A stretch of DNA of 64,000 bases from a virus, in IMG/VR virus record IMGVR_UViG_3300025117_000050, positions 1-64,000 of that record. One strand, written 5' to 3'. The position numbers and the translations under genes were made by a program. Each line of letters opens with the position of its first letter. Position 1 is the stretch's first letter. This document shows positions 2,114-51,017 of the stretch, one piece after another. The notes under the pieces are model-generated. The model saw only the letters and a program-made list of their open reading frames with translations. It made no database searches and had not been told where the DNA came from.

Positions 2114-2277
2114 TGTATAGCAAACGGTAAACCAGTGGGGATTATTTGATTTAGTAAGAGTCAACAGACAGGTACTCTGTTCCCAGGGAATCCATGCGAT
2201 AGATGAGAGGTGACATGGTAGAACTAAATTAGACCGTACCGTGAGTTGCTGGACGTAATCGGGTATTTTGCTATACA
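2114..2277 (+). ncRNA. putative structured non-coding RNA (~165 nt), family and strand unassigned
   Basis: GC-rich intergenic island closed by an 11-bp stem TGTATAGCAAA/TTTGCTATACA, with several internal complementary segments. Confidence 0.55.
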
Positions 2278-2310
2278 TTAATAAATAAAGATGCTAAAAT
2301 GATGATCTTA

Positions 2311-2380
2311 CAAAGTGTTGATTTATAATGGTTTATTAAACTGGAAATCATCACCAAAGATCGGTTTTGTCATATAATTT
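2311..2380. repeat. copy of a dispersed ~68-bp intergenic element
   Basis: Aligns with 8589-8656, 16107-16175, 49753-49820 and, in part, 12763-12788. Confidence 0.55.
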
Positions 2381-5463: not shown

Positions 5464-6666
5464 ATGATTAGAACCCCATTATCTTTAAGTGTGAAGCAAG
5501 TATGTACCATGATTAAGAAAGGTAGTATGACTTTTGATAATCCGATTCAAAGACCTCCTGGGCAATGGAATCAACAGAAGAAAAGTGATTTAATTGAATC
5601 AATTTTCAGAAGATTTATTCCTGATTTCTTTGCAGTTAAAACTAGGGAAGAAAAAGGAAACGTCTATGACGTGATCGATGGTTTGCAGAGATTCACAACT
5701 ATTTGTTCCTATCTTAACGATGAGTGGGAATTGCTAGAGATTAAACCTGTAAAAATAGAAACTACTGGTGAAATACATAATATATCAGGTTTAAAATATT
5801 CTCAATTGCCGGAAGATATACAGGATGTAATAAAAAGCCATATGTTGACTATAAGAACAATAGAATTTGAAGAAGATGAAGACGAAGAAGAACTTGTTGA
5901 AGAAATATTTTATCATCTTAACAGTGGTGTTCCGATGGCAAAAGAGCATTTAGCTCTTATCTCAGCACCTAAGAACGTACAGGAATTTTGTCATAGAATT
6001 ATAGCAGAACATGATTTATTTGTAGGAATTGCCAAATATTCAGAATCAGCAGTTAAAAAATCAGATAAGCATATGACAATTTTACAGAGTGTCTTGTTAA
6101 TATCTGGTTTACCCTATGAAAGTTTTGCAGCAAAGCACATTGAAGAAGTATTTGCTAAAAATGAAATAACAGAAGAAGTTTTAAAGCAGACAGAAAAGGC
6201 ATTTACAGACATTGCAGATACCTTTCAATCGACACATAAATTTGTAGTTAAAATCAATATACCAATTATGACCTATATGTTTTCTAATACTACAGAGGAA
6301 AATAAAATTCCTGTAAGAGAGAAATTATTGAATTATGTTAATAAAGAAATGTTACCTGGAGATAAATATAAGGCTTATACAGGTGCAGGGAATGTTAAGA
6401 AGGATAAAGTTATTAAGCGTATTAAAGGTATGTTTGAGATATGCGGAGTAGTAGAAAGACCAATAGAAGTAGTAAAACAGACTTATGAAGAGATTAATGC
6501 AGTATTACAGGAGTTTAAAAGTGAATCTGAAACTGAGACTGAAGACGATTCTACTAACGATAATGCTAATGTCAATGTACAATCTGAACTTGAATCTGAC
6601 GAAATACCAGAATTAACATTAGAAGATATACCTGACATTGAATTGGATGGCAAAGAAGTTAGTTAA
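5464..6666 (+). CDS. DUF262 (GmrSD/ParB-like N-terminal) domain protein with acidic tail
   Basis: IQR..QW....S.LI.SI, VIDGLQR and IF..LNSG motifs. Confidence 0.8.
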   Translation: MIRTPLSLSVKQVCTMIKKGSMTFDNPIQRPPGQWNQQKKSDLIESIFRRFIPDFFAVKTREEKGNVYDVIDGLQRFTTICSYLNDEWELLEIKPVKIETTGEIHNISGLKYSQLPEDIQDVIKSHMLTIRTIEFEEDEDEEELVEEIFYHLNSGVPMAKEHLALISAPKNVQEFCHRIIAEHDLFVGIAKYSESAVKKSDKHMTILQSVLLISGLPYESFAAKHIEEVFAKNEITEEVLKQTEKAFTDIADTFQSTHKFVVKINIPIMTYMFSNTTEENKIPVREKLLNYVNKEMLPGDKYKAYTGAGNVKKDKVIKRIKGMFEICGVVERPIEVVKQTYEEINAVLQEFKSESETETEDDSTNDNANVNVQSELESDEIPELTLEDIPDIELDGKEVS

Positions 6667-7263
6667 TAGAGAGGGTTAAATTCCCTCCCTATTCTTCTAA
6701 AATTTAAGGAGATGATATAATGAGTAATAATAATAAAGATAGTATCTACCTAGAAAATGGTTATAAGAATAGAGATGATTATTTACAATCTTTATCTGAG
6801 GATTACGGAGTACCTTTAGAATTTGTTTATAACCTTGCCGATTTATTAGGTGAGAGCGAAGAATGGGATGGCTTAATTTCAGCTTTAGAAGATGCAGAAG
6901 GAATGATTTATGATGAATAAGGGAGAAATAAACCTTCCCTATTAAAATAAAGGAGGCATGACAAAATGGAATTCACTTTAAATAGAAATACCCTTCTCAA
7001 ACTGAGCAATGATGAGATATTAGAATTGCTTAACAGTATAACAAATTTTGATTTATACTCAATGTCACTTGATTGGAGAGAATCAGCAGAGTATATTTTG
7101 AAATGCAAAGGTGCTGAAGGTGATGTTTTAGTTTACTGGAGTTGACTATAACAAATTAATTTAACAAAATCATAAAATAATAGTTGCTATGTGCCTAACA
7201 TAGTGTTACAATGAATATATAAATAATAATATATACAATACATAACACAAGGAGAGATATAAA

Positions 7264-33296: not shown

Positions 33297-36293
33297 AATA
33301 CATAAATAAATTATAAATAAAATACACAATAAAAGGAGAATTAACTATATGAATTTAACAAAAGAAGATAAATTATTAATATTAAAGGCATTTGAAGTCA
33401 AAGACTATGAATGTGGTTTAGAAGAAAGAGAAAAGAAAATAATGTTGGATATTGCTAAAGAATTAAATATAAAAAGATGCGGATACAATGAAGATACACA
33501 GTACGTAGAATGTCCTGTTGAAGATTTTGATTGTGAAAAATGCAAATATTATGTGGAATATTTTATATCTACAGATAGAGAAATATAAATAATGAGATGA
33601 ATTTATTATGAAAACTAATATTATGAAAGTTAATTATATGCATACTGATAAATCTCCTGACTGATATATTTGGAATGCATTTTGTGATGAGTGTGGTAAA
33701 CAATTTAGAAATCATAAAATTTATAGTAGCAGTAAACCAGACAAAAGTGAAAAGGATTATTGTTTAGATTGTATGAGGGAAATGATTGATAATAAAATTA
33801 ATAATAAAGGAGCAGAAAATACATATGAAAAATATTGATAAAATAAGATTGAAACTACAAGAAGATTTAGATGATAAAATTAAACATATATTAGAAAATG
33901 AATGTCCGTTTCATTATGATTTAAAAGGTTTTGAAGATGATAATGATGAAAGATGTTATGAAAATAATAAAGATAAAGAAAGTTGTAAAAAATGTTGGGA
34001 TTTAGAAGACATAGAAGAATAAAAAAATGTAAGTCGTTAGCAAACAAATCTTTGCTCGTGATTCCAGTAGTAAATATTAGGAGAAATATATGCAGACTAA
34101 AAAACTCAATTCATTAATTAAAAGATTAGATTACAAAAATTTAAGTAAGAAAAAGAAAAGAAAATGTTTGCAAGAGATTAATATAATAGAACAAAAAGAA
34201 TCTAACAAAGAAAGAAAATTAAAAATGGAAAATAAAAATCTATGGGACATTGAAGATATTATAAAACAATTAGCATTAGATGAATATGATAAAATAGGTT
34301 TATTTGAAACAAGTAAATATCTAAAAATATCTCAAGATAAAGTATTAGAATGTTTTATTTATTTATCAGAAAGAGATTATCCTAAACTTAATATTAAAAT
34401 TTTAATTACTTGTCCAATACATAGAGAAGTATTATATTCTTATGATTTAAACAAAGGATTAAATCAAATACAGCCTCAATACTATTGTCATTATTGCGAA
34501 GATATTATAGATGTAAATGCTGAATATGTATATCTACAATTTTTAATTGATAAAAATTATTTAAAATTTGCTAAAGAATGTAGAAGAAAAAGGAAATTAG
34601 AAAAGGCAAAAGAGTTAGCAAAATATATTAATCGGAAAACTGAAGAAGCAGGATTAACTTATGAAGAGATTCAAGAAGATGTGTATAGAGCATGGTTAGA
34701 GATTAGAAAAGAAAAAGAAGAAAATAAATAATTAATAGGAGGATGAAATTATATGAAAAAGTTTTATTTAGATGATGGTTGTTTCTATTGTAATAAAGAA
34801 GTTGATAGTACACTACATGAAACACATACCGAAGTAAGAACTTTAACAAAGTATGATGTAGAATTTGGGAGAATACAAAAACCTAGTATTATAAATAGAC
34901 TTAAGGATAATTATCTTTATTTAGTTTGTTCTTGTGGAGAAATTGAGGACATTTCAGGTGAATTTATGATTAAAGATGATCATATTATGAAAAGAAAAAG
35001 AAGGTGAATAATTTATGAAATCTATTACATTTATTAGTGCAGTATTTGACTATGATAATAAACATAATATGGAATGTTTAGGCATATTAGATGAAAATAA
35101 TGATGAAATTATAGGAACAATTTATTTTGATAATAATTTTGGAAATGAAGAATTTCTTAAAAATTATGCAATTGTTAAAATAGAAAGAAAAGATAAAGGA
35201 GAGAAATAAATTGATTTCTATTGATAAAACAAGGCAACTCAAAGAATTAGGATTAGTATGGAATCCTCAATGTGGTGATTGGTATAAAATAGATTATTGG
35301 CCTACACCTATTTTATTAACTATAGATATATCAAGATTAGATGATAAAGAAATTGAATGTGTAATAGAAAATGTTAAGAATAATACTTGGTTGCCTAGAT
35401 TAGATCAAATGTTAGATGAAATTAAAAAATATAATTGGACTTATGCATTATATAGTGAAAATAAAATAGAAATTGAAATTGAAACACGTATCGAGTATGT
35501 ATCAATAATTGATAGGCATAGAAATTTTAAAGGCAATATAATAGAGAATGTAATTGCAGATGCTTTGATTTATATATTAGGAAAAGAGAAGGAGAAAATA
35601 TGATTATACGTGAATTAGACGAACAAGAATGTATTAATGATTTTGGATATAAATATATTATGCTAGATGAATTAATTAAAGATAATATTTTATATATGTA
35701 TGATTTAATTGATAAATGTGATGAGTGTGGTCTTTGTTGGATGAATGAAGAAGAAATTGATTGGTATATAGAAAAGACAAGAAAATTTTAAATTATAACT
35801 AAAGTTTAGTTTGGTGATAATATTAAGGAGATTTTTATTATGAGAGACAAAATAAGATTTCATTTTAGTTCAGGTTGTTATTTTGATAATTTTATGAAAG
35901 ATTTTATAGAAAAAATAAAAAATAGTATTAATAAAAAAGATATATTATTTGAGTATAAAAATATTTTAGTATATAAATCAAGCAATACAGAGGTATCTAT
36001 TTCTAATACAGGTTTTGATGTATATTTTTTGGAAATTGAAGAAATAAATATTCAAGAAAATACTAATATATTACTGCAAGAACATAAAAAATTAAAAGAC
36101 TTATATGAACATTATCCAAAAATATATGAATTTACAATATTCACAAATCAAAATTATTGTGACAAGATAAGAAAACAATTAATAAAATTAAAAGCTGATT
36201 TTACTGAAAATAATTTTAAATCTTTTGATGAAATGACATATACTTTTCACGTATATACTAAAATAAAATTTTTTGAGTAAGGAGGAAAATATT

Positions 36294-36707
36294 ATGGAAA
36301 ATGAAAATGAAATTATCCAATATTTTATAGTTAATTCAGAAATTAAAATATCAGCACCTAAGTTATCAGTACAGATAGGACATGTAGCAACTATAATTAC
36401 ACATGATATTATAAAAAGAATGTATCAACCAATAAGTGAAAATGAAGAATATATTAATCCTAATATATTGATTAATATTAATGATTGGTTAGAATGGTAT
36501 AACGATGGCAAAAATCAAAAGAAGATTATACTTAGAGGTAAAGAGAAACAATTATTAAAATTGATTGATCAGGGATTTTATTATATTAGAGATAATGGGT
36601 GTAATGAGTTAGAAAAAGGGACACTTACAACGGTAGGTCTGCCACCTATGAAAAGAAGCGAAGCACAAAAATATATAAAAAAATTACAATTATATAAAGG
36701 AGATTAA
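36294..36707 (+). CDS. peptidyl-tRNA hydrolase PTH2 family
   Basis: KLSVQIGH, KKIILRG and IRDNG.NEL..GTLT.VGLPP; SD AAGGAGG before ATG 36294. Confidence 0.85.
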   Translation: MENENEIIQYFIVNSEIKISAPKLSVQIGHVATIITHDIIKRMYQPISENEEYINPNILININDWLEWYNDGKNQKKIILRGKEKQLLKLIDQGFYYIRDNGCNELEKGTLTTVGLPPMKRSEAQKYIKKLQLYKGD

Positions 36708-38951: not shown

Positions 38952-39464
38952 ATGAACTTATTATTCAGTTCAGATATGCACTATTATCATAAAAATCTAT
39001 CAATACACAGAGGATTTAATTCAATAGAAGAGATGAACGAGTTGATGATTGATAATCACAATGAAAAAGTTACTAAGAATGATCATATTTATATTCTAGG
39101 TGATTTTTCATTTGGTACAGTTGAACAAACATTAAAAATATTAGATAGGTTAAATGGAAATAAATATTTAATTATTGGAAATCACGATGAAAAAATGTTA
39201 AAGAGCAGAGAAGTGGTTAGTAAATTTGCATGGGTTAAAGATTATTATAAGTTAAAACATAATGGATTGAAAATTATATTATCACATTATCCATTTTATA
39301 GATGGGATTGTAGTCATTATGAATCGTTGATGTTTTATGGGCATATTCATGATCAAAAATTAGATATTGAGATTAAGAATTCTTATAATGTAGGTGTTGA
39401 TGTTAATGATTATGAACCTGTGAGTTTGGAGGAGATATTAGGGAAGATTGATTATAAAAAATAA
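38952..39464 (+). CDS. calcineurin-like metallophosphoesterase
   Basis: SDMH, LGDF, GNHD, SHYP and GHIH motifs. Confidence 0.9.
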   Translation: MNLLFSSDMHYYHKNLSIHRGFNSIEEMNELMIDNHNEKVTKNDHIYILGDFSFGTVEQTLKILDRLNGNKYLIIGNHDEKMLKSREVVSKFAWVKDYYKLKHNGLKIILSHYPFYRWDCSHYESLMFYGHIHDQKLDIEIKNSYNVGVDVNDYEPVSLEEILGKIDYKK

Positions 39465-39587: not shown

Positions 39588-40037
39588 GTGATTTTAATGA
39601 TTATTAAAACTCAAACTGCTAATGCTGTTAATGCTCAATGTTATAGGAAAGAGGAAGAGGTTGATTGGAGGTCGTGGTGTCCTAAACGTGGAGAGATTTA
39701 TTTGTGTCAGTTAGGAAATGAAGGTTTATTATATTCAGAAATTAAGGGTTATCGTCCAGTTTTAATAGCATCAAATGATATAGCGAACAGGCATAGCCCA
39801 GTAGTTACTATAATTCCATTAACTTCCAGTCAAATAAAAAATAACTTACCTGTTCATGTTAAAGTAGGGGTAGAAGAAGGGTTGCGAAATTTGAGTTTAA
39901 TTTGTTGCGAGCAGACTAAAACTGTGTCAAAAAATAGAATGTTTATAAACGGTAGTTTAGTTAAAATATGCAAATTAAGTAATGAATTAATGTGTAAAGT
40001 GGACAACGCATTAAAAATACAATTCGGATTAGTTTAA
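39588..40037 (+). CDS. mazF: MazF/PemK (NdoA-like) endoribonuclease, orphan
   Basis: KRGEIY..L..SE..GYRPVLI.SND..N..SP.V..IPLTS...LP.HV...EQ..TVSK.R...KVDNALKIQFGL; catalytic Arg and Thr present. Confidence 0.92.
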   Translation: MILMIIKTQTANAVNAQCYRKEEEVDWRSWCPKRGEIYLCQLGNEGLLYSEIKGYRPVLIASNDIANRHSPVVTIIPLTSSQIKNNLPVHVKVGVEEGLRNLSLICCEQTKTVSKNRMFINGSLVKICKLSNELMCKVDNALKIQFGLV

Positions 40038-40184
40038 TTAAAATAGTGTGGTTAGAATGTTAATATAATTATACATATTAATAAAAGGATGTGATGTTAT
40101 TTGATTGTGTGAAAATTTATAAAGTATTGTGTTTTTAGTTTATTGGTTTGGATTGAAATAATAAAATATTAAAGGAGGATAAAT

Positions 40185-41543
40185 TTGTTAGTTAAAAATC
40201 AAAAAGTTAAAGTTAAATGGAATGGAGCACATAGAAAATATTATGAAGAAAAAGGTTATCCATTTACTAATTATGGTGATGAATTAGAGATAGACATAAA
40301 AGATTTAGCACCAAAAAGTCAAAAATATGTTTTAGTTAGTTGTGATTATTGCGGTATACCATTTATGAGGAGGTATTGTAATTACAATACAAGAAAAGAA
40401 AAATACGGTAAAGATGATAAAGATTGTTGTGATGATTGCAGAGTACATAAAAGAGAAGAAACATGTTTAGATAAATATGGTTTTAAAAATGCTGTTCAAG
40501 TAGAAGAAATACAAAATAAAATAAAAGAAACTATTAAGGAAAAATATGGAGTAGAATATATATCTCAAGTAGAAGAAATTAAAAATAAAAAGAAACAAAC
40601 TTGTTTAGATAGATATGGAGTAGAATATACCTTGCAAGTTCCAGAGATTAGAGAAATGATTATAGAAACTAATATAAATAAATATGGAGTTGAAAATCCA
40701 TTTCAAAATGAAGAAATTAAAGAAAAAATCAGACAAGTCAATATGGATAAATATGGTGTAGAATATCCAATGCAATTACCTGAAATAAGAGAAAAAAGTC
40801 AAGAAACAACTTTTAAAAATCTTGGTGTTAAATATGCTATGCAATCTTATAAAACACAAGAAAAAAATAAACAATCTATTCAAGATAAATACGGATATAC
40901 AAATATTTTTCAGATACCAGAGATAAAAGAAAAAATAAAGAAAATTAATATTAAAAAATATGGAGCGGAAAATCCTTTAAATAATAAAGAAATTAGAGAA
41001 AAAGCTAATAAAACTATAAAAGATAAATATGGTGTTGATAATGTTTCACAGAATCCAGAAATACAAGCAAAAATTAGACGTTCATTTTATAAAAATGGTA
41101 CTACTCCTACTTCAATTCAACAAAGATATATTTGTTTTTTAGTAAACGGTAAATTAAATTTTCCTATTGGAAGAACAAATGCAGATATATTGATAAATAA
41201 TAATATAATTATTGAATATGATGGTGGTGGACATAATCTAAGTGTAAAAATAGGAAATATAACGCAAGATCAATTTAATAGAAAAGAAATTAAAAAATAT
41301 TATTTTTTAAAAAGTAAAGGATATAAGATTATTAGAATTGTATCTGCTAAAGATAATTTACCTAAAGAAGAGAAAAGATTAATTGATGCTATAAATATAG
41401 CAATTGATTATTTAAATCAAAATCATTCTTGGTTTGAAATAAATATTGATGATGGAAAATTAAGATGTATTTGTTATGAAAAAGATTATAATTTTGGAGA
41501 ATTAAGAAGAGGAACAAAAGAAAATTTAGCTATAAATACATAA
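40185..41543 (+). CDS. putative homing endonuclease: Zn-ribbon, ~23-aa KYGV repeats and a PD-(D/E)xK/DUF559-like C-terminus
   Basis: About nine KYGVE.P.Q..EI..K repeats; ADILI...IEYDGGGH. Confidence 0.7.
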   Translation: MLVKNQKVKVKWNGAHRKYYEEKGYPFTNYGDELEIDIKDLAPKSQKYVLVSCDYCGIPFMRRYCNYNTRKEKYGKDDKDCCDDCRVHKREETCLDKYGFKNAVQVEEIQNKIKETIKEKYGVEYISQVEEIKNKKKQTCLDRYGVEYTLQVPEIREMIIETNINKYGVENPFQNEEIKEKIRQVNMDKYGVEYPMQLPEIREKSQETTFKNLGVKYAMQSYKTQEKNKQSIQDKYGYTNIFQIPEIKEKIKKINIKKYGAENPLNNKEIREKANKTIKDKYGVDNVSQNPEIQAKIRRSFYKNGTTPTSIQQRYICFLVNGKLNFPIGRTNADILINNNIIIEYDGGGHNLSVKIGNITQDQFNRKEIKKYYFLKSKGYKIIRIVSAKDNLPKEEKRLIDAINIAIDYLNQNHSWFEINIDDGKLRCICYEKDYNFGELRRGTKENLAINT

Positions 41544-41582
41544 ATATTATATATTAAAAATAAAAGGAGGATTATATATTTA

Positions 41583-42176
41583 TTGATTGAATTTATTATA
41601 GGAGCATTTTTATATGCTAAATTTAAAAAAGGTTATAAGTTAAAATACATATTTAAATACCCATACATATTTGCGATAATACCACCTTTATTATGTGTTT
41701 TACTATACATATATTTAGAATATTGTGTTTTTAATCAGCAATATTGGTTTTTCCCTTATCAACATATAATAAAGACTACAACGCTTATAAGTTATGTTCC
41801 GTTGATTTATATATATAATTTATATTATAATGATATATATGAAAATGATACATTAAAATCATTTTTAACATCTCCTGCTAGTAAAACTACATTTTGTTTA
41901 GGATTAGGCTCATTTTTAAACTATATGGCAATTATCTCTAACAATATGAAAATGCCAGTATTTCCCAGTAATTGTTATTGGACTGGTTATATTAAACCTG
42001 AATTCATTAATGATGGTTTACATGTGCTAGGTGATGCTTATACTAAAGCAATCCCCTTATGCGATTGGATCGATTTTGGAATATATGTAGCTAGTCCAGG
42101 TGATATATTAATAAGATCATTTGCATTTTTAATTATTTATCATTCTATAAAAAATTCTAATAAAATGATAAAATAA
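41583..42176 (+). CDS. DUF5317-family membrane protein
   Basis: G.FLN...I.SN..KMPV...H.....TK...L.D.I.....SPGDILI. Confidence 0.75.
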   Translation: MIEFIIGAFLYAKFKKGYKLKYIFKYPYIFAIIPPLLCVLLYIYLEYCVFNQQYWFFPYQHIIKTTTLISYVPLIYIYNLYYNDIYENDTLKSFLTSPASKTTFCLGLGSFLNYMAIISNNMKMPVFPSNCYWTGYIKPEFINDGLHVLGDAYTKAIPLCDWIDFGIYVASPGDILIRSFAFLIIYHSIKNSNKMIK

Positions 42177-42208
42177 TTGTTGACACATAATTAACTCTGT
42201 GGTAATAT
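42164..42208 (+). promoter_or_regulatory. sigma-A promoter of the receptor-agrD operon, with the 18-bp element
   Basis: AATGATAAAATAATTGTT, then TTGACA(42180)-17-TAATAT(42203). Confidence 0.7.
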
Positions 42209-42244
42209 ATAAATAGAAAAAGTTGCTAAGGAGTTGATAGAGAA

Positions 42245-43039
42245 ATGATACATGATATTACAAATGCTTTGTTAAATTTTTTACTTGTAAGTGTTTTGGA
42301 GGAGTTTGTATGGTTGTTAATAACCATAATATTATTAAAAAGATTTGATTTGCTTGATAGATATAGATGGAAAGAGAGTATGCGAGAATTTTTAATACCT
42401 ATCTTACCAACTGCACTTTATATCAATTTATCTAGATATGTTTTACATATGCCTAGAATAATAATATTATTTGGATGTATATTTATATTTTATGGTTTGA
42501 CATTATATATAATAAAGAAAAATTCATTTATAGATGAAAAATTACCATATTTAAAAATATTAATGTTTGTATTTATAGGTATTCTTATTATAGGAATAAC
42601 AGAATTGATTTATATGCCAATAATTTTATATATTATACAACAACCAGTAACAATAATGAATCAAAATATTTTAATGAATTTTGCATTTTCAATACCATCT
42701 AGAATATTTCAAATATTATTAATTCTTGCATTAATTTATAAATATAATGAAATTAAATTATTCAGCAATATAATAAAAGATAAAGTATTATTAATTATTA
42801 CAGTGTTGTTTTTAAGTATTATATTGCTAATAGTATTTATTACAACAAAAATTATTCATAGTTATTGTTTAATTTTAAACTTTTCTTTATATTCACAAAT
42901 ATTAATTGGAATTAGCATAACAACAATTATAACATTAATAATATTTTTTTATCTTATTCCAATTAATTATTTAATAAATAAAATGTTTTTACTTAACAAA
43001 TCACATCAAAATATGTTTGATGATGATTATATAGATTAA
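42245..43039 (+). CDS. polytopic membrane protein, putative AIP receptor (AgrC-sensor-like, no kinase domain)
   Basis: About 7 hydrophobic segments, only a ~20-aa C-terminal tail, no H-box or GHKL motifs; directly upstream of agrD. Confidence 0.6.
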   Translation: MIHDITNALLNFLLVSVLEEFVWLLITIILLKRFDLLDRYRWKESMREFLIPILPTALYINLSRYVLHMPRIIILFGCIFIFYGLTLYIIKKNSFIDEKLPYLKILMFVFIGILIIGITELIYMPIILYIIQQPVTIMNQNILMNFAFSIPSRIFQILLILALIYKYNEIKLFSNIIKDKVLLIITVLFLSIILLIVFITTKIIHSYCLILNFSLYSQILIGISITTIITLIIFFYLIPINYLINKMFLLNKSHQNMFDDDYID

Positions 43040-43060
43040 AATAGAAAGGAGGGAAATTTC

Positions 43061-43180
43061 ATGAAAAAGTTTGCAATTATTACTTCTTTAATTGGTATTA
43101 TCGGCATTATCTGTGCAAATTGTATTAATTCTGCTTGGACATTTAACCAACCGAAAGCACCATCTATGTTAGTTAAGTAA
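43061..43180 (+). CDS. agrD: AgrD-type cyclic lactone autoinducer peptide precursor (39 aa, not in ORF track)
   Basis: SD AAGGAGG; MKKFAIITSLIGIIGIICANCINSAWTFNQPKAPSMLVK = hydrophobic leader, S-A-W-T-F core, NQPKAP follower typical of clostridial AgrD. Confidence 0.88.
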   Translation: MKKFAIITSLIGIIGIICANCINSAWTFNQPKAPSMLVK

Positions 43181-43197
43181 TTTATAACTACATAGAA

Positions 43198-43237
43198 TAT
43201 TTATAGTAGAGGATGATTGTTTTCTCTACTATAAATA
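43198..43237. terminator. hairpin terminator after agrD
   Basis: TATTTATAGTAGAG / CTCTACTATAAATA. Confidence 0.7.
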
Positions 43238-43257
43238 CAAAAAATAAATATAAATAC

Positions 43258-43286
43258 TTGTATTCTGGAGGATAGTATGGTAAAAT
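43258..43286 (+). promoter_or_regulatory. sigma-A promoter for the HTH-mazF / ORF / agrB unit
   Basis: TTGTAT-17-TAAAAT with extended TG. Confidence 0.6.
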
Positions 43287-43332
43287 AATAGATGTAATAT
43301 ATATAAAATATTAAATTGAGGAGTGATTAATA

Positions 43333-44229
43333 ATGTCAATATTATTTGGTAAGAAGAATGTATTAAAACCTACTTCTACAAATTCTATTTCTGAAATAAC
43401 AAAGAAAGAGTTAGCTTACAATATAAGAGTTGCCGTAGGTCATCGAAGTATTACTCAAGTCTGTAATATATTAAAAATGGTCGATCCAAAACCATTAGTT
43501 GACTTAATAAAAATGAATTATAATGAATTACCTGATAGACAATTACTTAGAAAAATTGCATCTGCAAGCGAAGGTAGGGTTTCTTATCAAAACCTTTATT
43601 CTGTCTGCGGTTATTCCGAATTTGATTCTGAAGAAGATCGTAGTTGGGCAAAGTGGGTTCCTGAACGTGGTAGTTGTTATATGATTGATTTAGGATGGAA
43701 TATGGATAGTGAGCAAAATTCTGTGCGTCCGGCAATAGTGATGCAAAACAACAAAGGCAATCAATACTCAGGAACAACCGTTATTATCCCTATATCTTCT
43801 CGTTCTAAAAAATTTTCTTCACAGATTCATGTATTATTAGAAAAAGAATTAGGATTTTTACGGGAATGTCAATGTTTTCCAGAACAAATTCGCTGTGTTT
43901 CAAAAAGGAGGTTCTTCTATAATTCTGTACCTTATAAAATCACTACTTTACCAGAACATAAATTATTAGAAATCAAAAACGCACTTGAGTTTGAACTAGG
44001 TTTTGAGCCTTTATATTTTGACGAAGAAAAAATATTTAAATTAATTTCTCATATTCGTTCTTTAGAAAATAATATTAAAATCAAAAAATCACATAATCTA
44101 ATTGATATATTAAATCAAAAAATGGATGATCTAAAAGAATACTGTTCAAAATATCATAAGAATCACAAGATTATCTTACAAGAATACGATAGAATCAACA
44201 ATTGCGGTTACAATGCAGTATCCATATAA
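43333..44229 (+). CDS. XRE-like HTH-MazF/PemK fusion with C-terminal helical extension
   Basis: N-terminal ELA..IR.AVG.RSI......P....LRKIA.AS...VSY..L...CGY; middle ERGSCY.IDL....SEQ..VRPAIV.QN..GN.YS....IPISS..IHV...EQIR.VSK.R. Confidence 0.85.
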   Translation: MSILFGKKNVLKPTSTNSISEITKKELAYNIRVAVGHRSITQVCNILKMVDPKPLVDLIKMNYNELPDRQLLRKIASASEGRVSYQNLYSVCGYSEFDSEEDRSWAKWVPERGSCYMIDLGWNMDSEQNSVRPAIVMQNNKGNQYSGTTVIIPISSRSKKFSSQIHVLLEKELGFLRECQCFPEQIRCVSKRRFFYNSVPYKITTLPEHKLLEIKNALEFELGFEPLYFDEEKIFKLISHIRSLENNIKIKKSHNLIDILNQKMDDLKEYCSKYHKNHKIILQEYDRINNCGYNAVSI

Positions 44230-44291
44230 AACAACAAATCCAACCAAAATAAACAAATAAAACTAAAACAAAAAAAAGGAGATCAATTAAA

Positions 44292-44633
44292 ATGATAATC
44301 TTTGATGAAAAACAATTAAAATACTTATTTAATAAATACAAAATAAGATATAAAATATTTGAAGAAACAAATATTCTACTTATAGATAGTGGTCTTGATG
44401 AGTGGTTAATCAAGTATCAACATGGAAGAGATCAACCATATTGCCTTATGCACAAAAATAAATTAAAACAAACTAAAAGGTTCCATGTGCAGAGATGGTT
44501 GTCAAATTTTTATCAATCACTTGATAGTCTATTGTCACATAAAAATATTTTTGTAGATCATTCAAGTTCAAAAAATACATATAAAAAATATAGAAATAAT
44601 AAAATAAATAATAAAAGGAGAAAAAGTTGTTAA
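44292..44633 (+). CDS. hypothetical protein overlapping the agrB start
   Basis: SD AAGGAG; overlaps the agrB start by 7 nt. Confidence 0.6.
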   Translation: MIIFDEKQLKYLFNKYKIRYKIFEETNILLIDSGLDEWLIKYQHGRDQPYCLMHKNKLKQTKRFHVQRWLSNFYQSLDSLLSHKNIFVDHSSSKNTYKKYRNNKINNKRRKSC

Positions 44634-45421
44634 AATATATAAAAAACTACATAATAACATTTCGTTATATCAAACTATTCTCATATTGGAATGCAAGATA
44701 TTTGCATAACAAACTAAAAGAAGAAAGAATTAGAGAATCACAAAACTTACATAATCCACATAAAGAAAAACATAAATATTATTATATATTGCAAATGATA
44801 ATTAAAAAATTATTTCAAATAATTAATAAAATAATTTCTTTAACTCCATTAGGAAGAAAACTATCATCGTACATAACTGAAAAATATTCACAATATAAAC
44901 AGAAAGAGAAAAAACCTAAAAAAATATACAACAGATACACCTACTATTATGGTCTTCAAATAATCATCGGAGGCATAAATAAATTCCTTCTACTAATCAT
45001 ACCAGGCTTACTATTTAACATCTTGCCGCAACTATTACTAACCACGTTATCATTTGTATCACTAAGAATATGGACTGGTGGTCTGCACTACAATTCTTAT
45101 ACCAAATGCAGCTACATATCACTATTATCCTTCACACTCACAGCACTACTATCAAAATACATCATATTAAATCAATTTATCACTATGTCAATATTTCTAT
45201 CTGTATTTATATTAATTTTAATCTATGCCCCTGTAGAACATCCAAACAGACCAATAAAAGAAAAAGAAAAAATTAAATACAAATTAATCGCATTATTTGT
45301 ATTAAGCACCTTAACTATTATCTATATGTTTACAAATAATGTTATTATCTGTAATTCTATTATATATGGGATATTATTAGCAGGTATAATTATGTTACCA
45401 ATTATAAATAAACTAAGATAA
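44627..45421 (+). CDS. agrB: AgrB accessory gene regulator B (peptide-processing membrane protease)
   Basis: LRIWTGGLH...YTKC (catalytic His/Cys) and IYAPVEHPNRP motifs. Confidence 0.93.
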   Translation: MLKYIKNYIITFRYIKLFSYWNARYLHNKLKEERIRESQNLHNPHKEKHKYYYILQMIIKKLFQIINKIISLTPLGRKLSSYITEKYSQYKQKEKKPKKIYNRYTYYYGLQIIIGGINKFLLLIIPGLLFNILPQLLLTTLSFVSLRIWTGGLHYNSYTKCSYISLLSFTLTALLSKYIILNQFITMSIFLSVFILILIYAPVEHPNRPIKEKEKIKYKLIALFVLSTLTIIYMFTNNVIICNSIIYGILLAGIIMLPIINKLR

Positions 45422-45552
45422 TTATTAACATAATTTCGTAAATGGTCGATAAATGTCGGTAGGTGCGTATTGTTAATATGCTAAATATTATATAGAATAA
45501 TAGTATTAAAACATATTAATCACAAATTAAATTAAAATATGAATTTAGGCTA

Positions 45553-45606
45553 TTGTTTTTTTATTATTAAGGTATTATAATAGAACAAATATACAAACAA
45601 ATGTTC
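45553..45606 (+). promoter_or_regulatory. sigma-A promoter with a downstream LexA-box-like site
   Basis: TTGTTT-17-TATAAT(45576); AAAC-AAAT-GTTC at 45595-45606. Confidence 0.45.
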
Positions 45607-45861
45607 TACAAACAAATAGAGGAGGAGATTGTTACGAATAAAACAGTTTACACAATAAAAGATGAAAATGACAAATATGTACATGGTAATAGTATTAAAA
45701 AAATTAATGAAAAGTATTATTATTCCCCATATTCATGTTTAGAAGATGGTTGTATTGCTTATACTAATAAAATAAGAGTAGAGGAAGCATTGACTACTCT
45801 TAAATTACATAATCAACTAGGTGGGCTAGGTCACAAATTTATTATTACGCTTGTTTCATAA
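45601..45861 (+). CDS. small hypothetical protein; true start probably just after the GAGGAGG at ~45619-45625
   Basis: ORF track plus internal SD. Confidence 0.5.
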   Translation: MFYKQIEEEIVTNKTVYTIKDENDKYVHGNSIKKINEKYYYSPYSCLEDGCIAYTNKIRVEEALTTLKLHNQLGGLGHKFIITLVS

Positions 45862-45883
45862 TCAATAAATAATAATTTTTCTA

Positions 45884-45912
45884 TTGACATAGCATACTAA
45901 TACATATATAAT
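45884..45912 (+). promoter_or_regulatory. consensus sigma-A promoter of the repressor operon
   Basis: TTGACA-17-TATAAT. Confidence 0.85.
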
Positions 45913-45959
45913 AATCATTAATGAGATATTATATATAAATAAAAAAGAGGTGAGTAACT

Positions 45960-47336
45960 ATGCTTAATATTAAAAATGCTATGTTGATAAAAGAATTAAA
46001 ACCACTAATAATTAAATATGGAAACAATTCAAAAATTTATAATCTTGTTCACGAATCCTTTATTAAAAAGGGTTTAACGGGTAGTAATGCAAAAAATCTA
46101 TTTACAGGTAAACTACCATTAGAATCTTTAGATATCACTTGTCAAAAAGAATTATATTTATTATTTTCTTTTACTGATAGCATGAGAAAAGCATTAAATT
46201 CATTTGATGAAATGTCTAAAGATACTTTTGGTTCAGAAGAAGAGTACTCAAAATTAAAACTAGAAAATTATTTTACTCCTATGGAAATTGAAGAGTTTAC
46301 GGATTTCGTGATAGAGAAAGAAGAAATAAGTAGATATCCTTACAGATTAAAAAACATGTTAAAAGTTGGGGAAAATCACTATATAGGCATTATATCTGCT
46401 AGAGAATTATCTTGGATAGATGCCTCCAATGACATTGTTTATGATTTCGCTGTACAGCGTGATCCCAAAATTGATATATTTGGCATGAAACGTATTAATA
46501 CTGATTTAAAGAAAATAGATGAAATGACAGAGAAGTTACTTTCTGGCAATTACTTTTCAGATGAAATTAAGTTAAATGTTAAGAATGATGGTGAAGATCA
46601 TATCGAATTCGATTCAAAAGACGGAATTTATGGTGATCTTATTATTCATTCAGGAACAATAACTTGTTTTGACGGTTATCACAGAAAAGCAGCCAATTCA
46701 AAAGTTATGAATATTAATAATGAATTGCAATTTAATTGGAAACTAGGTGTTACTAACTATCCAGAACCTAAAGCAAAAAAATTCATGATTCAAATTAACA
46801 AACAAAAACCTATTAAGATTGAACACATCAGAAATATTGATGAAACAAGAAATGAAAATGTAATTGTCAATAATATTATCAATAATTCTAATTCCGAACT
46901 TGCTGATAAGATTAAAGATTCTGATGCAGAATTAAAACATGGTGGATTAACTAAAAAATCTATATTATCTTTAGCAATAGAAGAACAATATAAGGAATTT
47001 TTAGTTACTAAAATCAATAATATTGAAATATCTAATTGGATAGTAGAATTCACAAATCATTTAATGGGATTATATACTAACGAATTTTTATTTAATGTAG
47101 ACAAAACTAAAAAAATAAGTTATATTAATCATAAGAATATGTTTATGGGATATATCGCACTTTCAAGAAAATTGTATAAGCAAGATGATTGGAAAAATAA
47201 AACTAAAAAAATAATGGAAAGCGTTGATTTTAGCATTGATAATGATATTTGGAAAAGTATTAAAATCAATGAAGATAATTTAAATAAAACATCAAAGAAT
47301 GAATTATATAATATATTTATTAAAAAGCAGGTGTAA
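45960..47336 (+). CDS. YopQ/SroE-like DndB/ParB-fold protein
   Basis: 458 aa; VQR and CFDGYHR (DGQHR-type) motifs, FMIQINKQKP; adjacent to a YopR-like gene as in SPbeta. Confidence 0.7.
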   Translation: MLNIKNAMLIKELKPLIIKYGNNSKIYNLVHESFIKKGLTGSNAKNLFTGKLPLESLDITCQKELYLLFSFTDSMRKALNSFDEMSKDTFGSEEEYSKLKLENYFTPMEIEEFTDFVIEKEEISRYPYRLKNMLKVGENHYIGIISARELSWIDASNDIVYDFAVQRDPKIDIFGMKRINTDLKKIDEMTEKLLSGNYFSDEIKLNVKNDGEDHIEFDSKDGIYGDLIIHSGTITCFDGYHRKAANSKVMNINNELQFNWKLGVTNYPEPKAKKFMIQINKQKPIKIEHIRNIDETRNENVIVNNIINNSNSELADKIKDSDAELKHGGLTKKSILSLAIEEQYKEFLVTKINNIEISNWIVEFTNHLMGLYTNEFLFNVDKTKKISYINHKNMFMGYIALSRKLYKQDDWKNKTKKIMESVDFSIDNDIWKSIKINEDNLNKTSKNELYNIFIKKQV

Positions 47337-47341
47337 AATAA

Positions 47342-48412
47342 ATGGTAAAACATAGAAACGGGAGAAAAAATTTAGCAGAAAGAGTGTTTAAGCATGATAG
47401 AGATGTTAAAGAAGAATTCTTAAAATCATTGAAACCCTCAACTGCTAATACTGTAAGAAGTATACTTTTTAAGGTAGATGAATATGAAGAATTAATTGGG
47501 AAAAGTATATATGATTTTAATTTAGATGATCGTGATGATTTTATTATATCTATGTTCCCTAATAAAAGTAAAGGTGTTATTAATACAACTAGATCATATC
47601 TGGTAGGATATATTAATTATTGTATTGACAATAACCTTGTTAGACATATGGAAAATAGATTTAGTTTAATCTCTAAAGATGATATAGATAATTATGTCAA
47701 TGATATGGCTATGCAAATGAAGTACCTGTCGAAGGAAGAAATTAAAGAAGCACAAAGTAAATTGGTTAATAATTGTGATAAATTAATTTTGCAATTAGTT
47801 CCTTTATCAGCCAGAGGTCGCACCGAAAAGGATAATACTAATGAAGAATTAATAAATTTAAGAGTGCAAGATGCTGTAGAATCTTACGAAAAAGGCAATC
47901 TAAAACTTTGGAATAATGATGGAGATTTTAGGTATATAAAAATTGATGATGAAACAATAGAATTATTAAAGAAAACTATAAATGATGATAAATATATCAT
48001 TAATAATGGAAGTGAATATAGTCGTAAAAGACATGATAAAAAACTTGGCAGAGGCATGGGAGAAAAAAGTTTCCCTTTAAATGATACTGGCTATGTTTTT
48101 AGAACTGCTGGCAAGAATAAAAGGGGTAAAGTTAAATCCAATTATTTTAATTCTAAAATTAATATAATAAAAGATTGGGTGGAGAATCCATTTATTAACA
48201 TAACTAATTTACACGCATCAGGTATGATTGATTATGTCATCCAATTAGAAAATGAAAAAGGAGAAGAATTAGATAATAACGACTATATAGATGTTTGTGA
48301 AAAATATTTATTTGGTAAACCTAGAATTTTGCCCAATGGTGAAAATGATTGGAGTATGTCAATATCAAAATTAAAGACAATGGTAAAAGATTATATTAAT
48401 ATTAAATCATAA
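47342..48412 (+). CDS. MrpR/YopR (SroF)-like tyrosine-recombinase-fold master repressor
   Basis: E..IGKSIYDF core-binding N-domain; DKLIL.L....EELINL and NL.ASGMI motifs; canonical HxxR not evident. Confidence 0.72.
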   Translation: MVKHRNGRKNLAERVFKHDRDVKEEFLKSLKPSTANTVRSILFKVDEYEELIGKSIYDFNLDDRDDFIISMFPNKSKGVINTTRSYLVGYINYCIDNNLVRHMENRFSLISKDDIDNYVNDMAMQMKYLSKEEIKEAQSKLVNNCDKLILQLVPLSARGRTEKDNTNEELINLRVQDAVESYEKGNLKLWNNDGDFRYIKIDDETIELLKKTINDDKYIINNGSEYSRKRHDKKLGRGMGEKSFPLNDTGYVFRTAGKNKRGKVKSNYFNSKINIIKDWVENPFINITNLHASGMIDYVIQLENEKGEELDNNDYIDVCEKYLFGKPRILPNGENDWSMSISKLKTMVKDYINIKS

Positions 48413-48424
48413 GGATGTGAAAAA

Positions 48425-49279
48425 ATGGCGAAAAATAGTATTAACTTATCTGACTATGAAGATATAGAAGTTTATAATATGGTTAGGTTTGGAATTATAG
48501 GTAGATTTCCTAATAATTTTTGGGGTGGATTAGATACTTATAAAACTGCAAAAGACCTGACTAGATATATGTTTGAAAATATTCTTGAATGGAGTATAGA
48601 AGATATTAAGCATAAGGTAACAGCAGATATTTTTTATGAAAATAAACTTGGTAATATGCTAAAAACACTTTTTGATAATAATTTATTAGATGCATTGCTT
48701 AACGCATACCCAGAATTAGCAGATTGGGTAGAAGAAAAAAAGAATAAAATTATTATCGAAAAAGAACCAAGAGAAAAATATACAGATGAAGAGTTAATAG
48801 AAAATTTACAGCAAAAATATAAGGAATTAAATAGAACACCTTATATAAGAGAAATGTCTGAACCAGAAGGAAATGTTTATATATCAAGATTTGGTAGTTG
48901 GAGTAATGCTTTAATTCTTGCTGAGTTAATTGAGGACATATGTGTAGATGTAGATAATTCAGAAGAAGCAATTAATAAAGCGCAAAGGGAAATTAAAGAT
49001 TTTGCGTATAAAGTAGAAAGATTACCAACTAAAAAAGAAGTAGATAATTTATTTTCTCCTGGAGAATTAATATCATATTTCGGTTCTTTAAAAGGACTTT
49101 ATGATTATTTAAGTGAAGGTTATACAGAAGAAGAATTAATAAATATATTAATTGATAAAAGAAATAAATTAGGGAGAAATCCAATAAATAAGGATATAAA
49201 ATTCCCAAGACCAATTATCTTTATTGATAAATTCAATAGTTGGGAGAATGCCTTAAAAGAAGCAAGATTAGATGAATAA
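48425..49279 (+). CDS. DUF4046-like domain plus homing-endonuclease-associated repeats (putative DNA-binding protein)
   Basis: RFPNNFW..RYMFE.ILEW..NAYP; repeats YT.EELI..L......L.R.P....F.SW.NAL..A. Confidence 0.65.
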   Translation: MAKNSINLSDYEDIEVYNMVRFGIIGRFPNNFWGGLDTYKTAKDLTRYMFENILEWSIEDIKHKVTADIFYENKLGNMLKTLFDNNLLDALLNAYPELADWVEEKKNKIIIEKEPREKYTDEELIENLQQKYKELNRTPYIREMSEPEGNVYISRFGSWSNALILAELIEDICVDVDNSEEAINKAQREIKDFAYKVERLPTKKEVDNLFSPGELISYFGSLKGLYDYLSEGYTEEELINILIDKRNKLGRNPINKDIKFPRPIIFIDKFNSWENALKEARLDE

Positions 49280-49300
49280 TTTAATCTTGCTTCTTTTATT
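49258..49300. terminator. terminator closing the repressor operon (possibly bidirectional)
   Basis: AGAAGCAAGATTA / TAATCTTGCTTCT followed by a T-run. Confidence 0.7.
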
Positions 49301-49533
49301 TATGTCAAACCCTTAATCCATTTTTCAGCAGCTAAACAGCATCCTTCAAAACTATTGAATTTAATATCTTCATTCAAAGAAATATAAATAATATCGTTAT
49401 CACGATCTATCTGAAAGTGATAGTAATATGTATCAGGCATATAATAAATATACGCTTTACATCCTTTTGCTCATCTTGCTATGCTGACCCACGTAGGGTA
49501 TACTTTACGCTTTAATATTCTTTTAAATTTCAT
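49300..49533 (-). pseudogene. minus-strand ORF with an in-frame TGA at codon 21
   Basis: SD AAGGAAG; MKFKRILKRKVYPTWVSIAR*AKGCKAY...KWIKGLT. Confidence 0.5.
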
Positions 49534-50405: not shown

Positions 50406-51017
50406 ATGAAACCTATAAACAAAGAATTAATCATCAAAGTATGTGAGCATATAATAGAACACAATCTTTCTTATAGAAAAATAGCTGATATATTCGGAAT
50501 CAATTTCAAAACTGTTTACAATTATACACAAATGATTGAAAGTATTGATTCCGAATTACATATAAAAGTCCAAAAATGTTTAAAAGAGAGAAAGGAAAAA
50601 CATCATAAACATTTATTGAAAAACTTAAACAATATCTATAAAGAAATTTGTGAATATTTTATTTGTGGAAGTACCATGAAACAGACTGGAATACATTTTA
50701 ATTCCAGTAATCGCTCTATACACTATTTATTCCATAATTATGTTAAATATAATGATCCTGAATTATATGTTATGATTTTAGAAATGATAGAATTAAATAA
50801 ACTTAAATCAATTAAGACACGTTCTGGAATAAGAAAGATGAAAAACATTGAAGAAAGATTAAATCTTTGTAAGACTATTATTAGTGACAAATTAACTTTG
50901 AAAGCAACAAGTGAAATATTTGATTTAGATGTAAAGACGATAAAAAGTTATATTAATAGTATAAGAGATGTGGATTATGGATTGCATGATGAAGTTTATA
51001 AACATTTGTGGAGATAA
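50406..51017 (+). CDS. protein with three tandem SpoIIID-like HTH units
   Basis: Units resembling I..I..SYRKIA..FG....TV......I..ID.EL...V. Confidence 0.65.
   Translation: MKPINKELIIKVCEHIIEHNLSYRKIADIFGINFKTVYNYTQMIESIDSELHIKVQKCLKERKEKHHKHLLKNLNNIYKEICEYFICGSTMKQTGIHFNSSNRSIHYLFHNYVKYNDPELYVMILEMIELNKLKSIKTRSGIRKMKNIEERLNLCKTIISDKLTLKATSEIFDLDVKTIKSYINSIRDVDYGLHDEVYKHLWR

Follow-up and report, generated by a model that had tools for sequence, protein, structure and literature searches.

Agr-type peptide genes and an HTH–MazF fusion upstream of a YopQ–MrpR repressor operon: A candidate communication switch of SPbeta-like phages

RESULTS

Gene content of the locus

The IMG/VR viral record IMGVR_UViG_3300025117_000050 is a 96.7-kb contig (CheckV completeness 49%), and its first 64 kb form the stretch of DNA analyzed here, hereafter the window. 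The window has a GC content of ~25% and holds nearly all of its genes on the plus strand. Between positions 39588 and 49279, genes for a putative Agr-type propeptide (AgrD) and an AgrB peptidase/cyclase enclose a gene for a MazF RNase fused to a helix-turn-helix (HTH)-like domain, here termed XMazF2; a gene for a polytopic transmembrane (TM) protein precedes agrD, and this cassette lies directly upstream of homologs of the SPbeta repressor genes yopQ and mrpR (yopR). Judged from its sequence, the cassette is a strong candidate for a phage communication switch that would join arbitrium as the second kind: its order recurs in diverged relatives, and the repressor operon behind it is depleted of predicted MazF sites. 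The features of the locus are as follows.

39588–40037, plus strand: MazF1, a stand-alone PemK/MazF protein (Pfam PF02452, 4.9e-23; PHROG MazF-like)
40185–41543, plus strand: homing endonuclease with DUF7487 and 69-nt internal repeats (Pfam DUF7487, 9.8e-54; PHROG 12131, 8e-78)
41583–42176, plus strand: DUF5317 membrane protein (Pfam PF17248, 9e-13)
42180–42208, plus strand: promoter-like site before the TM–agrD unit, TTGACA-17-TAATAT with TG (consensus match only)
42245–43039, plus strand: polytopic TM protein with ~6–7 TM segments, an acidic C-terminal tail, and no kinase domain (hydropathy)
43061–43180, plus strand: AgrD propeptide, 39 amino acids (aa), with a strong ribosome-binding site (homology to TIGR04223-positive orthologs, and position)
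43189–43236, plus strand: TACATA motif, 12 nt past the agrD stop, followed by a 16-bp stem–loop
43333–44229, plus strand: XMazF2, 298 aa, a three-domain fusion of HTH, MazF, and helical tail (PemK domain at residues 111–219, 3.4e-17)
44292–44633, plus strand: orf113, a small basic protein with invariant His residues (overlaps the agrB start)
44627–45421, plus strand: AgrB peptidase/cyclase (Pfam PF04647, 9.1e-37)
45601–45861, plus strand: orf86, a conserved small open reading frame (ORF) between agrB and yopQ (found in nine loci)
45884–45912, plus strand: sigma-A promoter of yopQ–mrpR, perfect consensus TTGACA-17-TATAAT (consensus match)
45901–49458, plus strand: longest TACAT-free stretch of the 96.7-kb contig, coinciding with the predicted yopQ–mrpR transcript
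45960–47336, plus strand: YopQ/SroE homolog (PHROG 5732, 1.8e-62; tblastn)
47342–48412, plus strand: MrpR/YopR/SroF homolog (Pfam MrpR_N_CB, 4.2e-13; tblastn to yopR, 1e-9)
48425–49279, plus strand: HNH_repeat/DUF4046 homing-endonuclease-associated protein (family match)
49254–49298, plus strand: strong intrinsic terminator with a 20-bp stem (prediction)

An earlier note on this DNA had named the mazF, endonuclease, DUF5317, TM, agrD, HTH-mazF, small-ORF, agrB, and yopQ/mrpR genes, and family searches found each of them in its place (AgrD by homology and position); missing from that note was the conserved orf86. The assignment of 45960–48412 to YopQ and MrpR homologs, on which the note's proposal turned, is borne out by the Pfam, PHROG, and tblastn matches. 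The homing endonuclease at 40185–41543 is classed as a selfish insertion outside the circuit, and the HNH_repeat protein is probably a selfish passenger outside the switch.

Conservation and mosaicism of the cassette

No match was recovered by megablast of the window region against GenBank phages, or by tblastn of the window AgrB against 50,697 GenBank phage records. Single-protein pattern scans of IMG/VR with YopQ and with AgrB likewise returned nothing, but alignment-based scans did recover loci. An alignment of AgrB homologs retrieved seven IMG/VR contigs of 42–152 kb (six phages; L008 and L009 are identical), and an XMazF2 alignment retrieved two Clostridium contigs from metagenome-assembled genomes (MAGs). 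Eight further contigs (L004–L010 and L013), representing seven further phage lineages, or eight with the window, share the order (DUF5317)–TM–AgrD–XMazF2–(orf113)–AgrB–(orf86)–YopQ–MrpR, at 27–81% protein identity to the window. The short contig L014 holds the first four cassette genes only, its assembly ending inside XMazF2. XMazF2 stands between agrD and agrB in nine of nine cassette loci, and orf113 is present in eight of the nine. The order survives an IS605-type TnpB gene (OrfB_IS605 with a Cas12f-like TNB domain; L006 8174–9253, between XMazF2 and orf113) as well as an HNH gene inserted in L007. Because it recurs in diverged relatives, the arrangement lies far beyond chance. The conserved linkage that the earlier note had made decisive for its proposal is therefore present, with the cassette order kept in eight lineages.

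A scan with a YopQ profile returned 14 loci, representing 13 phage lineages, or 14 with the window. In 12 of the 14 lineages that have this YopQ family, a PemK gene lies 0.3–3.5 kb upstream of YopQ–MrpR; in the other two, L033 and the identical pair L034/L035, no MazF was found within 8 kb. Loci L023, L031, and L036 contain no Agr genes, yet in each a PemK gene is found 0.3–2.4 kb upstream of YopQ–MrpR (adjoining a YopP-like integrase in L031 and L036), and the association of MazF with the repressor is therefore broader than that of Agr. A rearranged arrangement is seen in L027 (1150–5404), where AgrB, DUF5317, TM, XMazF, and a second TM paralog are followed by a 597-aa homing endonuclease before YopQ–MrpR.

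Pairwise identity matrices resolve three co-inherited blocks: DUF5317–TM(–AgrD), XMazF2–AgrB (rho 0.60), and YopQ–MrpR (rho 0.89). Between the window and L005, the flanks are 65–82% identical, but TM, AgrD, XMazF2, orf113, and AgrB only 29–55%. The parts appear to have been reshuffled by recombination yet kept together in order, which argues for selection on the ensemble.

Predicted serine-lactone signal and its processing

In every cassette, an ORF of 36–48 aa with a strong ribosome-binding site lies between the TM gene and XMazF2. The orthologs in L004, L008, and L010 exceed the TIGR04223 cut-off for AgrD (21–34 bits vs. 19); the window copy gets no TIGR04223 score and is called AgrD from its position and its homology to the L004 copy (49%). 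Leader and tail are conserved, and a serine is positioned exactly five residues before a [NH][QE]P[KR]xP tail in nine of nine loci. The five-residue segments, by contrast, vary (SAWTF, SAAWL, SFMGL, SRFFF, SHTLF, SFMWL, SLMWL, and SHLLF); a conserved leader, serine, and tail with variable rings suggests a pherotype-like pattern. Four lineages have no cysteine near the ring position and, given Agr chemistry, a serine lactone would therefore be the sole Agr-type product possible. In the window, the ring segment precedes an NQPKAP tail, and the product is predicted to be a five-residue serine-lactone ring, S-A-W-T-F. The AgrD sequences support the lactone signal that the earlier note had proposed. 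Serine-lactone autoinducing peptides (AIPs) are known in the Staphylococcus intermedius group.

Residues His154 and Cys161 of AgrB, seven residues apart, are invariant in 19 homologs, and their spacing is the same as that of H77 and C84 in S. aureus AgrB. The AgrB of the window phage carries a long N-terminal extension.

Directly after agrD, a strong stem–loop was found in eight of eight loci folded (z −2.1 to −5.1); the stem–loop sequences differ and contain no U-tract. Additionally, TACATA occurs within a conserved ACUACAUA(G) motif 10–13 nt past the agrD stop and before the stem in five of the eight (the window at 43189–43236, and from position 1205 in L004, 8462 in L005, 6798 in L006, and 8652 in L008). 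This TACATA could be a MazF cleavage site that uncouples the agrD mRNA from a stabilizing hairpin, or a protein-binding site.

MazF proteins

XMazF2 is a core member of the cassette and its candidate effector. The family comprises 66 clusters, 62 of them of 270–300 aa. An AlphaFold (AF2) model of the window protein (pLDDT 83) has a five-helix N-terminal domain (N-domain; residues 21–92), a MazF barrel (core, 105–222), and three long C-terminal helices (tail, 231–296). The core is closest to the UACAU(A)-specific MazF proteins of S. aureus and B. subtilis (PDB match 3e-29), with TM-scores of ~0.9 to 4HKE, 1NE8, and 4MDX at 32–36% identity; the catalytic Arg132 is invariant, and residue 155, equivalent to Thr52, is Ser or Thr. 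When the N-domain was folded alone (AF2 pLDDT 78), its top Foldseek matches were nearly all XRE HTH proteins (DdrO, ClgR, SinR, lambda cI, HigA), at E values of 0.08–0.8. The HTH that the earlier note had read into this gene holds as a resemblance of fold, with weak E values and no Pfam or PDB sequence match, and the modeled domain may be called weakly XRE-like. For the C-terminal tail, neither a PDB sequence match nor a resemblance to SPbeta YosL was found. Deposited phage genomes do not contain the three-domain architecture, tblastn matching only stand-alone MazF domains in them. The MazF proteins of L031 and L036 share the XMazF2 tail but are without the HTH domain.

The earlier note had credited the phage with MazF effectors in the plural. 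This applies to the HTH–MazF fusion, which belongs to the core; MazF1, with ~30 N-terminal residues beyond the PemK/MazF domain, occurs together with the homing endonuclease in only two of nine cassette loci, the window and its closest relative L005, and is classed as accessory rather than as a core cassette member. No MazE-family match was found among the neighbors (Pfam E ≤ 0.01), in agreement with the absence of a visible MazE reported before, and a single-sequence search, which is weak, returned no YosL-like protein. Either orf113 or the fused domains of XMazF2 could neutralize the toxin.

Two Agr-less relatives encode further proteins next to MazF. Directly upstream of MazF in L036, a 98-aa ORF with a very acidic C-terminus (6522–6818) is a possible MazE-like antitoxin. 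Directly after MazF in L031 lies a gene for a 199-aa protein with a weak TPR match (5606–6205; E 7e-4), followed by an S-adenosylmethionine methyltransferase gene; the 199-aa protein might point to a sensor of another, RRNPP-like kind in this relative.

The membrane protein and DUF5317

The TM protein has no Pfam, NCBIfam, or PHROG family. A profile search against 1.84 billion representatives found 208 relatives; none of the 150 listed has the length of a kinase (56–326 aa, most 240–326), and Pfam scans of 24 gave no convincing family for any of them. An Atlas search returned no named kin, structural TM-scores being below 0.4, and hhalign detected no similarity to the one PF14501-positive kinase in the candidate host MAG. 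Identification as a CPBP/PrsW protease was dropped, with no conserved His or EExxxR motif present. Only four of 291 Clostridiaceae genomes contain the protein, apparently within the same kind of element.

In the phages, the TM gene always adjoins agrD, and its product is the most divergent member of the cassette (mean pairwise identity 37%). Its pairwise identities co-vary with those of DUF5317 (rho 0.83) and of AgrD (rho 0.41). Divergence and co-variation fit a specificity determinant, though a receptor role is not thereby established; the protein is a candidate peptide receptor, or a candidate maturation or export factor. A complex prediction of the TM protein with XMazF2 scored 0.52, and one control scored 0.43, a result that speaks neither for nor against binding. 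DUF5317 is present in most cassette loci and is co-inherited with the TM protein; in five phages its genes are enriched in TACAT beyond amino-acid need (19 observed vs. 8–11 expected).

Repressor operon and depletion of MazF sites

By homology, YopQ is the second repressor of SPbeta-like phages and MrpR the integrase-fold master repressor; the window YopQ matches SPbeta yopQ at 1e-14 and Geobacillus virus E3 at 2e-25 (tblastn). The promoter at 45884–45912 and the terminator at 49254–49298 frame yopQ, mrpR, and the HNH gene as one predicted transcript. A near-consensus yopQ promoter was found in seven of seven phages (the window and the six relatives examined, L004–L010), and in all seven an A[AT]TACATA[TA] box lies over the spacer, the −10 element, or the start site. 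Either MrpR or the HTH of XMazF2 might use this box as an operator; the box and the post-agrD TACATA alike could be cut by MazF in RNA, bound as operators in DNA, or serve in both ways. Between 38 and 52 kb, no convincing MrpR operator-like repeats were found. Promoter-like sites also precede XMazF2, in AT-rich DNA where promoter matches are abundant by chance (120 found vs. 110 expected). No YopM–P genes were seen between the cassette and yopQ; the window contains no YopP-like integrase (one is present in L031 and L036), and for YopM, YopN, and YopO no individual searches were made.

Just upstream of the yopQ promoter, always and including in MazF-only loci, lies a member of the orf86 family (80–130 aa, motif YVIKD..GNF...Y..YTG), which matches no known family. 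Relatives occur in L004 (3632–3952), L006 (10902–11210), L010 (10820–11137), L023 (3063–3374), L027 (5623–6021), and L031 (7624–7908). The orf86 product is a candidate small regulator or antirepressor.

The strict MazF site of Bacillota is U^ACAUA (10.64898/2026.08.06.743204). The YopQ and MrpR genes of seven phages contain seven TACAT sites, against 19–22 expected when synonymous codons are shuffled or resampled, and none of 500 shuffles was as low. When the 1024 pentamers in these seven phages are ranked by z, TACAT comes second in depletion, and no pentamer with an expectation of at least 10 has a lower observed/expected ratio. TACATA is absent from the same genes against an expectation of 4.5 (P = 0.0025), and control motifs are not depleted. 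The pattern was replicated in five further MazF-linked loci (TACAT 6 vs. 11.7 expected, P = 0.02; TACATA 0 vs. 3.0, P = 0.04). Over the 12 MazF-linked phages together, YopQ and MrpR are depleted of UACAU roughly threefold and contain no UACAUA. In contrast, two YopQ–MrpR loci without nearby MazF are not depleted (TACAT 8 vs. 4.8 expected), nor is SPbeta yopQ/R depleted of UACAU, and the rest of the window's contig is if anything enriched in TACAT (141 vs. 118 expected).

That site depletion tracks the presence of MazF points to a coupling of MazF to repressor expression. The link between MazF and the repressor drawn in the earlier note is upheld in that MazF sites are depleted in YopQ–MrpR only in MazF-linked phages. 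Of the patterns of UACAU use first seen in the window, depletion in YopQ/MrpR and enrichment in DUF5317 survive the synonymous shuffle, while an avoidance in mazF and a "loading" of AgrB are explained by length and amino-acid composition.

Phage, host, and sample context

Beyond the window, the contig encodes a helicase, RNA ligase, NAD ligase, DnaB, primase, RecJ/YorK-like exonuclease, and PolIII-alpha/YorL-like polymerase, a block whose gene content is that of the replication block of an SPbeta-like phage. The contig of the closest relative (G001) carries a large serine recombinase, and a temperate life style therefore fits. Sequencing runs containing the window DNA are DNA metagenomes of groundwater, soil, and sediment.

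A Clostridium sp. MAG (G005), the candidate host, includes a 149-kb contig with a related cassette. The same MAG contains two further AgrB loci and a canonical 120-aa MazF (C64 7761–8321, C9 3060–3640, and C67 46797–47117). As far as it is assembled, it yielded no AgrC-type kinase, and its single PF14501 match is a HAMP–HisKA kinase rather than AgrC. The earlier note had called the phage circuit self-contained; it need not be, as the putative host has MazF and AgrB genes of its own.

Several neighboring genes were also recorded. Just upstream of the cassette, the window encodes a PTH2-type peptidyl-tRNA hydrolase (36273–36707) and a calcineurin-like phosphoesterase (38952–39464). A SpoIIID-like HTH protein (203 aa, 50406–51017) is 91% identical between the window and L004, though the repressor genes are only 33–36% identical; it appears unusually conserved for its region. 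In L003, a 781-aa ORF (1126–3471; contig 83126–85471) matches both DnaB-like helicase and terminase-large-subunit/ATPase PHROGs, and may be a DnaB interrupted by an intein or a fused ATPase.

DISCUSSION

Comparison with known systems

To our knowledge, no phage-encoded peptide language for lysis–lysogeny other than arbitrium has yet been proven, and arbitrium is confined to RRNPP-type receptors in Bacillus-group phages. As in arbitrium of SPbeta and phi3T, secreted-peptide genes lie co-oriented and directly upstream of YopQ (SroE) and YopR (SroF/MrpR) in the window, the SPbeta order being aimR–aimP–(aimX)–yopM–N–O–P–Q–R. The peptide varies between related phages in both cases, and the RecJ/YorK-like, PolIII-alpha/YorL-like, helicase, and primase genes belong to the SPbeta backbone as well. 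In phi3T, the decision involves host MazF, which spares the sro operon; in the window phage, the repressor message is free of the Bacillota MazF site. The parts, however, differ. AimP is linear, matured by host proteases, and imported by Opp, whereas AgrD would be processed by AgrB to a predicted cyclic lactone. Arbitrium uses the TPR/RRNPP receptor AimR and AimX, none of which was detected here, nor was YosL; the searches for AimR and YosL used single sequences and are weak, SPbeta AimR finding nothing in five phage contigs. MazF is host-encoded in arbitrium phages but phage-encoded and fused to an HTH-like domain here, and UACAU depletion of YopQ/R is seen here but not in SPbeta. The earlier note had proposed a replacement of the RRNPP system; the position does match that of aimR–aimP–aimX upstream of yopM–R, as an analogy and not as descent.

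With the Agr systems of staphylococci and clostridia, the cassette shares the His/Cys pair of AgrB and the leader, five-residue ring position, and conserved tail of AgrD, although the tail here is short and basic, unlike theirs. The known systems are ordered agrBDCA and include the AgrC kinase and the LytTR regulator AgrA; here the order is TM–agrD–mazF–orf113–agrB, and no known sensor is detectably related to the accompanying membrane protein. Neither the AgrC-type ATPase domain (PF14501) nor a LytTR regulator (PF04397) was matched in five phage contigs (G000–G004), one rated 100% complete and one 82%, which extends to further contigs the lack of AgrA and complete AgrC noted earlier for the window. 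Compared with the MazEF (EndoA/YdcDE) modules of Bacillota, the MazF core fold and the catalytic Arg and Thr/Ser are retained, but there is no adjacent MazE match, extra N- and C-terminal domains are present, and a peptide-signaling cassette surrounds MazF.

Phage-borne agr genes without agrA have been described in temperate Bacillota phages, phiCDHM1 and Paenibacillus phages, where a role in the phage life cycle is suspected and unproven (PMC3901668). Like the window phage, phiCDHM1 carries agrB and agrD without agrA; unlike it, phiCDHM1 encodes an AgrC kinase, has agr genes that closely copy a host agr3 locus, and is described as a phiCD119-like myovirus, hence not SPbeta-like, with no MazF or MrpR linkage described (PMC3901668). 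The literature searched reports agr genes in no phages other than phiCDHM1 and Paenibacillus phages, and it treats MazF in phage decisions solely as a contribution of the host to arbitrium; no paper on this cassette was found. New here are the MazF-only relatives, the mosaic blocks, the conserved post-agrD hairpin with TACATA, and a cut-site depletion of the repressor operon that was checked against controls and replicated.

A proposed switch and its alternatives

The locus may be a peptide-signaling input to the SPbeta-type lysis–lysogeny switch of a temperate Clostridium phage, with the phage HTH–MazF as effector and the cut-site-free repressor operon as protected output, a reading that we favor tentatively and hold to be somewhat short of probable. 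The peptide would accumulate as infections or lysogens become dense and would be perceived by the TM protein or by a host sensor. Perception would raise the activity or level of HTH–MazF, which would cut phage and host messages bearing UACAU(A) and spare yopQ–mrpR; the repressor would then win, and lysogeny would be chosen or maintained. In five of the eight loci, the UACAUA after agrD would add a feedback on signal production. By analogy, this logic would match that of arbitrium with the host MazF of phi3T, built from different parts. That the peptide is made, is a lactone, is sensed by the TM protein, and changes MazF activity, and the direction of that effect, are steps that we infer.

Several observations weigh against this proposal. 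The UACAU(A) cut site of the phage MazF is a prediction from kinship. The TM protein shows no detectable kinship to AgrC or another sensor, so that its receptor role is a guess and a role in maturation or export equally possible. Expected site counts per single phage are small (1–3), and the depletion therefore rests on pooling; moreover, the first set of seven phages was examined after the pattern had already been seen in the window. Avoidance of a MazF encoded by the host, such as the one carried by the candidate host MAG, could explain the depletion equally well. No antitoxin was found, which leaves the escape of the phage from its own RNase in lytic growth without an explanation, and no RNA run was present among the sequencing runs containing the window DNA. 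In the MazF-only loci L023, L031, and L036, MazF stands beside the repressor without Agr. Finally, alleles of the three cassette blocks assort independently (rho ~0 between blocks), and with such block-wise reshuffling signal and effector are therefore not tightly co-evolving.

The independent assortment of cassette and repressor-pair alleles would also suit a lysogenic-conversion or defense cassette, in which the genes are morons like rexAB beside lambda cI and the HTH–MazF toxin, possibly triggered by the peptide at high density, serves abortive infection or superinfection exclusion and protects lysogens rather than steering the phage's own decision. PHROGs class phage MazF as "moron, auxiliary metabolic gene and host takeover," stand-alone MazF genes occur in many unrelated GenBank phages, MazF1 is an accessory copy beside a homing endonuclease, and B. 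subtilis MazEF is described in work on arbitrium as anti-phage defense (10.1101/2023.04.27.537455; Cui et al. 2022). However, morons usually vary by presence or absence in close relatives, while here the order is fixed in eight diverged lineages and it is the alleles that vary; a depletion of MazF sites specific to the repressor operon would be needless for a pure defense toxin; and no antitoxin or other trigger typical of abortive-infection toxin–antitoxin systems was found. We consider this explanation unlikely, though deserving of serious weight. A different target for the peptide would be the quorum sensing of the host, with a phage serine-lactone AIP activating or blocking host Agr receptors, as proposed for phiCDHM1, and altering sporulation, toxins, or growth, and with the MazF fusion as an independent stabilization or regulatory gene in the same early region. 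This is in keeping with the agrB/agrD/agrC genes without agrA of phiCDHM1 and Paenibacillus phages (PMC3901668), with the lack of a kinase or regulator found in the phages, and with the two further AgrB loci of the cassette-bearing Clostridium MAG, and Ser in place of Cys in the ring could make a cross-inhibitor. It is less likely still: XMazF2 lies between agrD and agrB in every cassette locus and co-varies with AgrB, which suggests that it belongs to one unit with them; the phage-specific TM protein is always beside agrD and is rare in Clostridiaceae genomes; and the candidate host MAG yielded no AgrC-type kinase, its PF14501 match being of another type.

That unrelated accessory genes came by chance to lie side by side in a gene-dense early region, with no functional connection, is very improbable. 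Selfish elements do abound (homing endonucleases at 40185 and 48425, TnpB in L006, HNH in L007), and early regions of SPbeta-like phages are mosaics of small ORFs; but the order is conserved in eight lineages at 30–50% identity despite insertions, MazF is linked to YopQ–MrpR in 12 of 14 lineages, and site depletion tracks MazF.

Implications

On the tentatively favored reading, the cassette would belong with phage peptide communication coupled to MazF and SroE/SroF, and it has a substantial chance of being new in mechanism. In its fullest form, which we regard as rather doubtful, the proposal would be a second, mechanistically distinct phage-to-phage communication, in which a serine lactone would be sensed without a kinase by a new family of membrane proteins and would act through an HTH–MazF that spares a cut-site-free repressor operon, thereby setting lysis–lysogeny; the variation in the ring would then represent private phage "dialects."

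If the proposal is true, an arbitrium-like logic of peptide, MazF RNase, and protected SroE/SroF message would have been rebuilt from Agr parts in anaerobic Clostridium phages, and a kinase-free route would lead from a cyclic peptide to an RNase. It offers a testable hypothesis for three orphan families, namely the TM protein, DUF5317, and the HTH–MazF fusion, and cut-site-free repressor operons provide a sequence signature that is searchable in other phages. These data also suggest that the coupling of MazF and repressor known from phi3T, where the toxin is the host's, may be a general and evolvable design.

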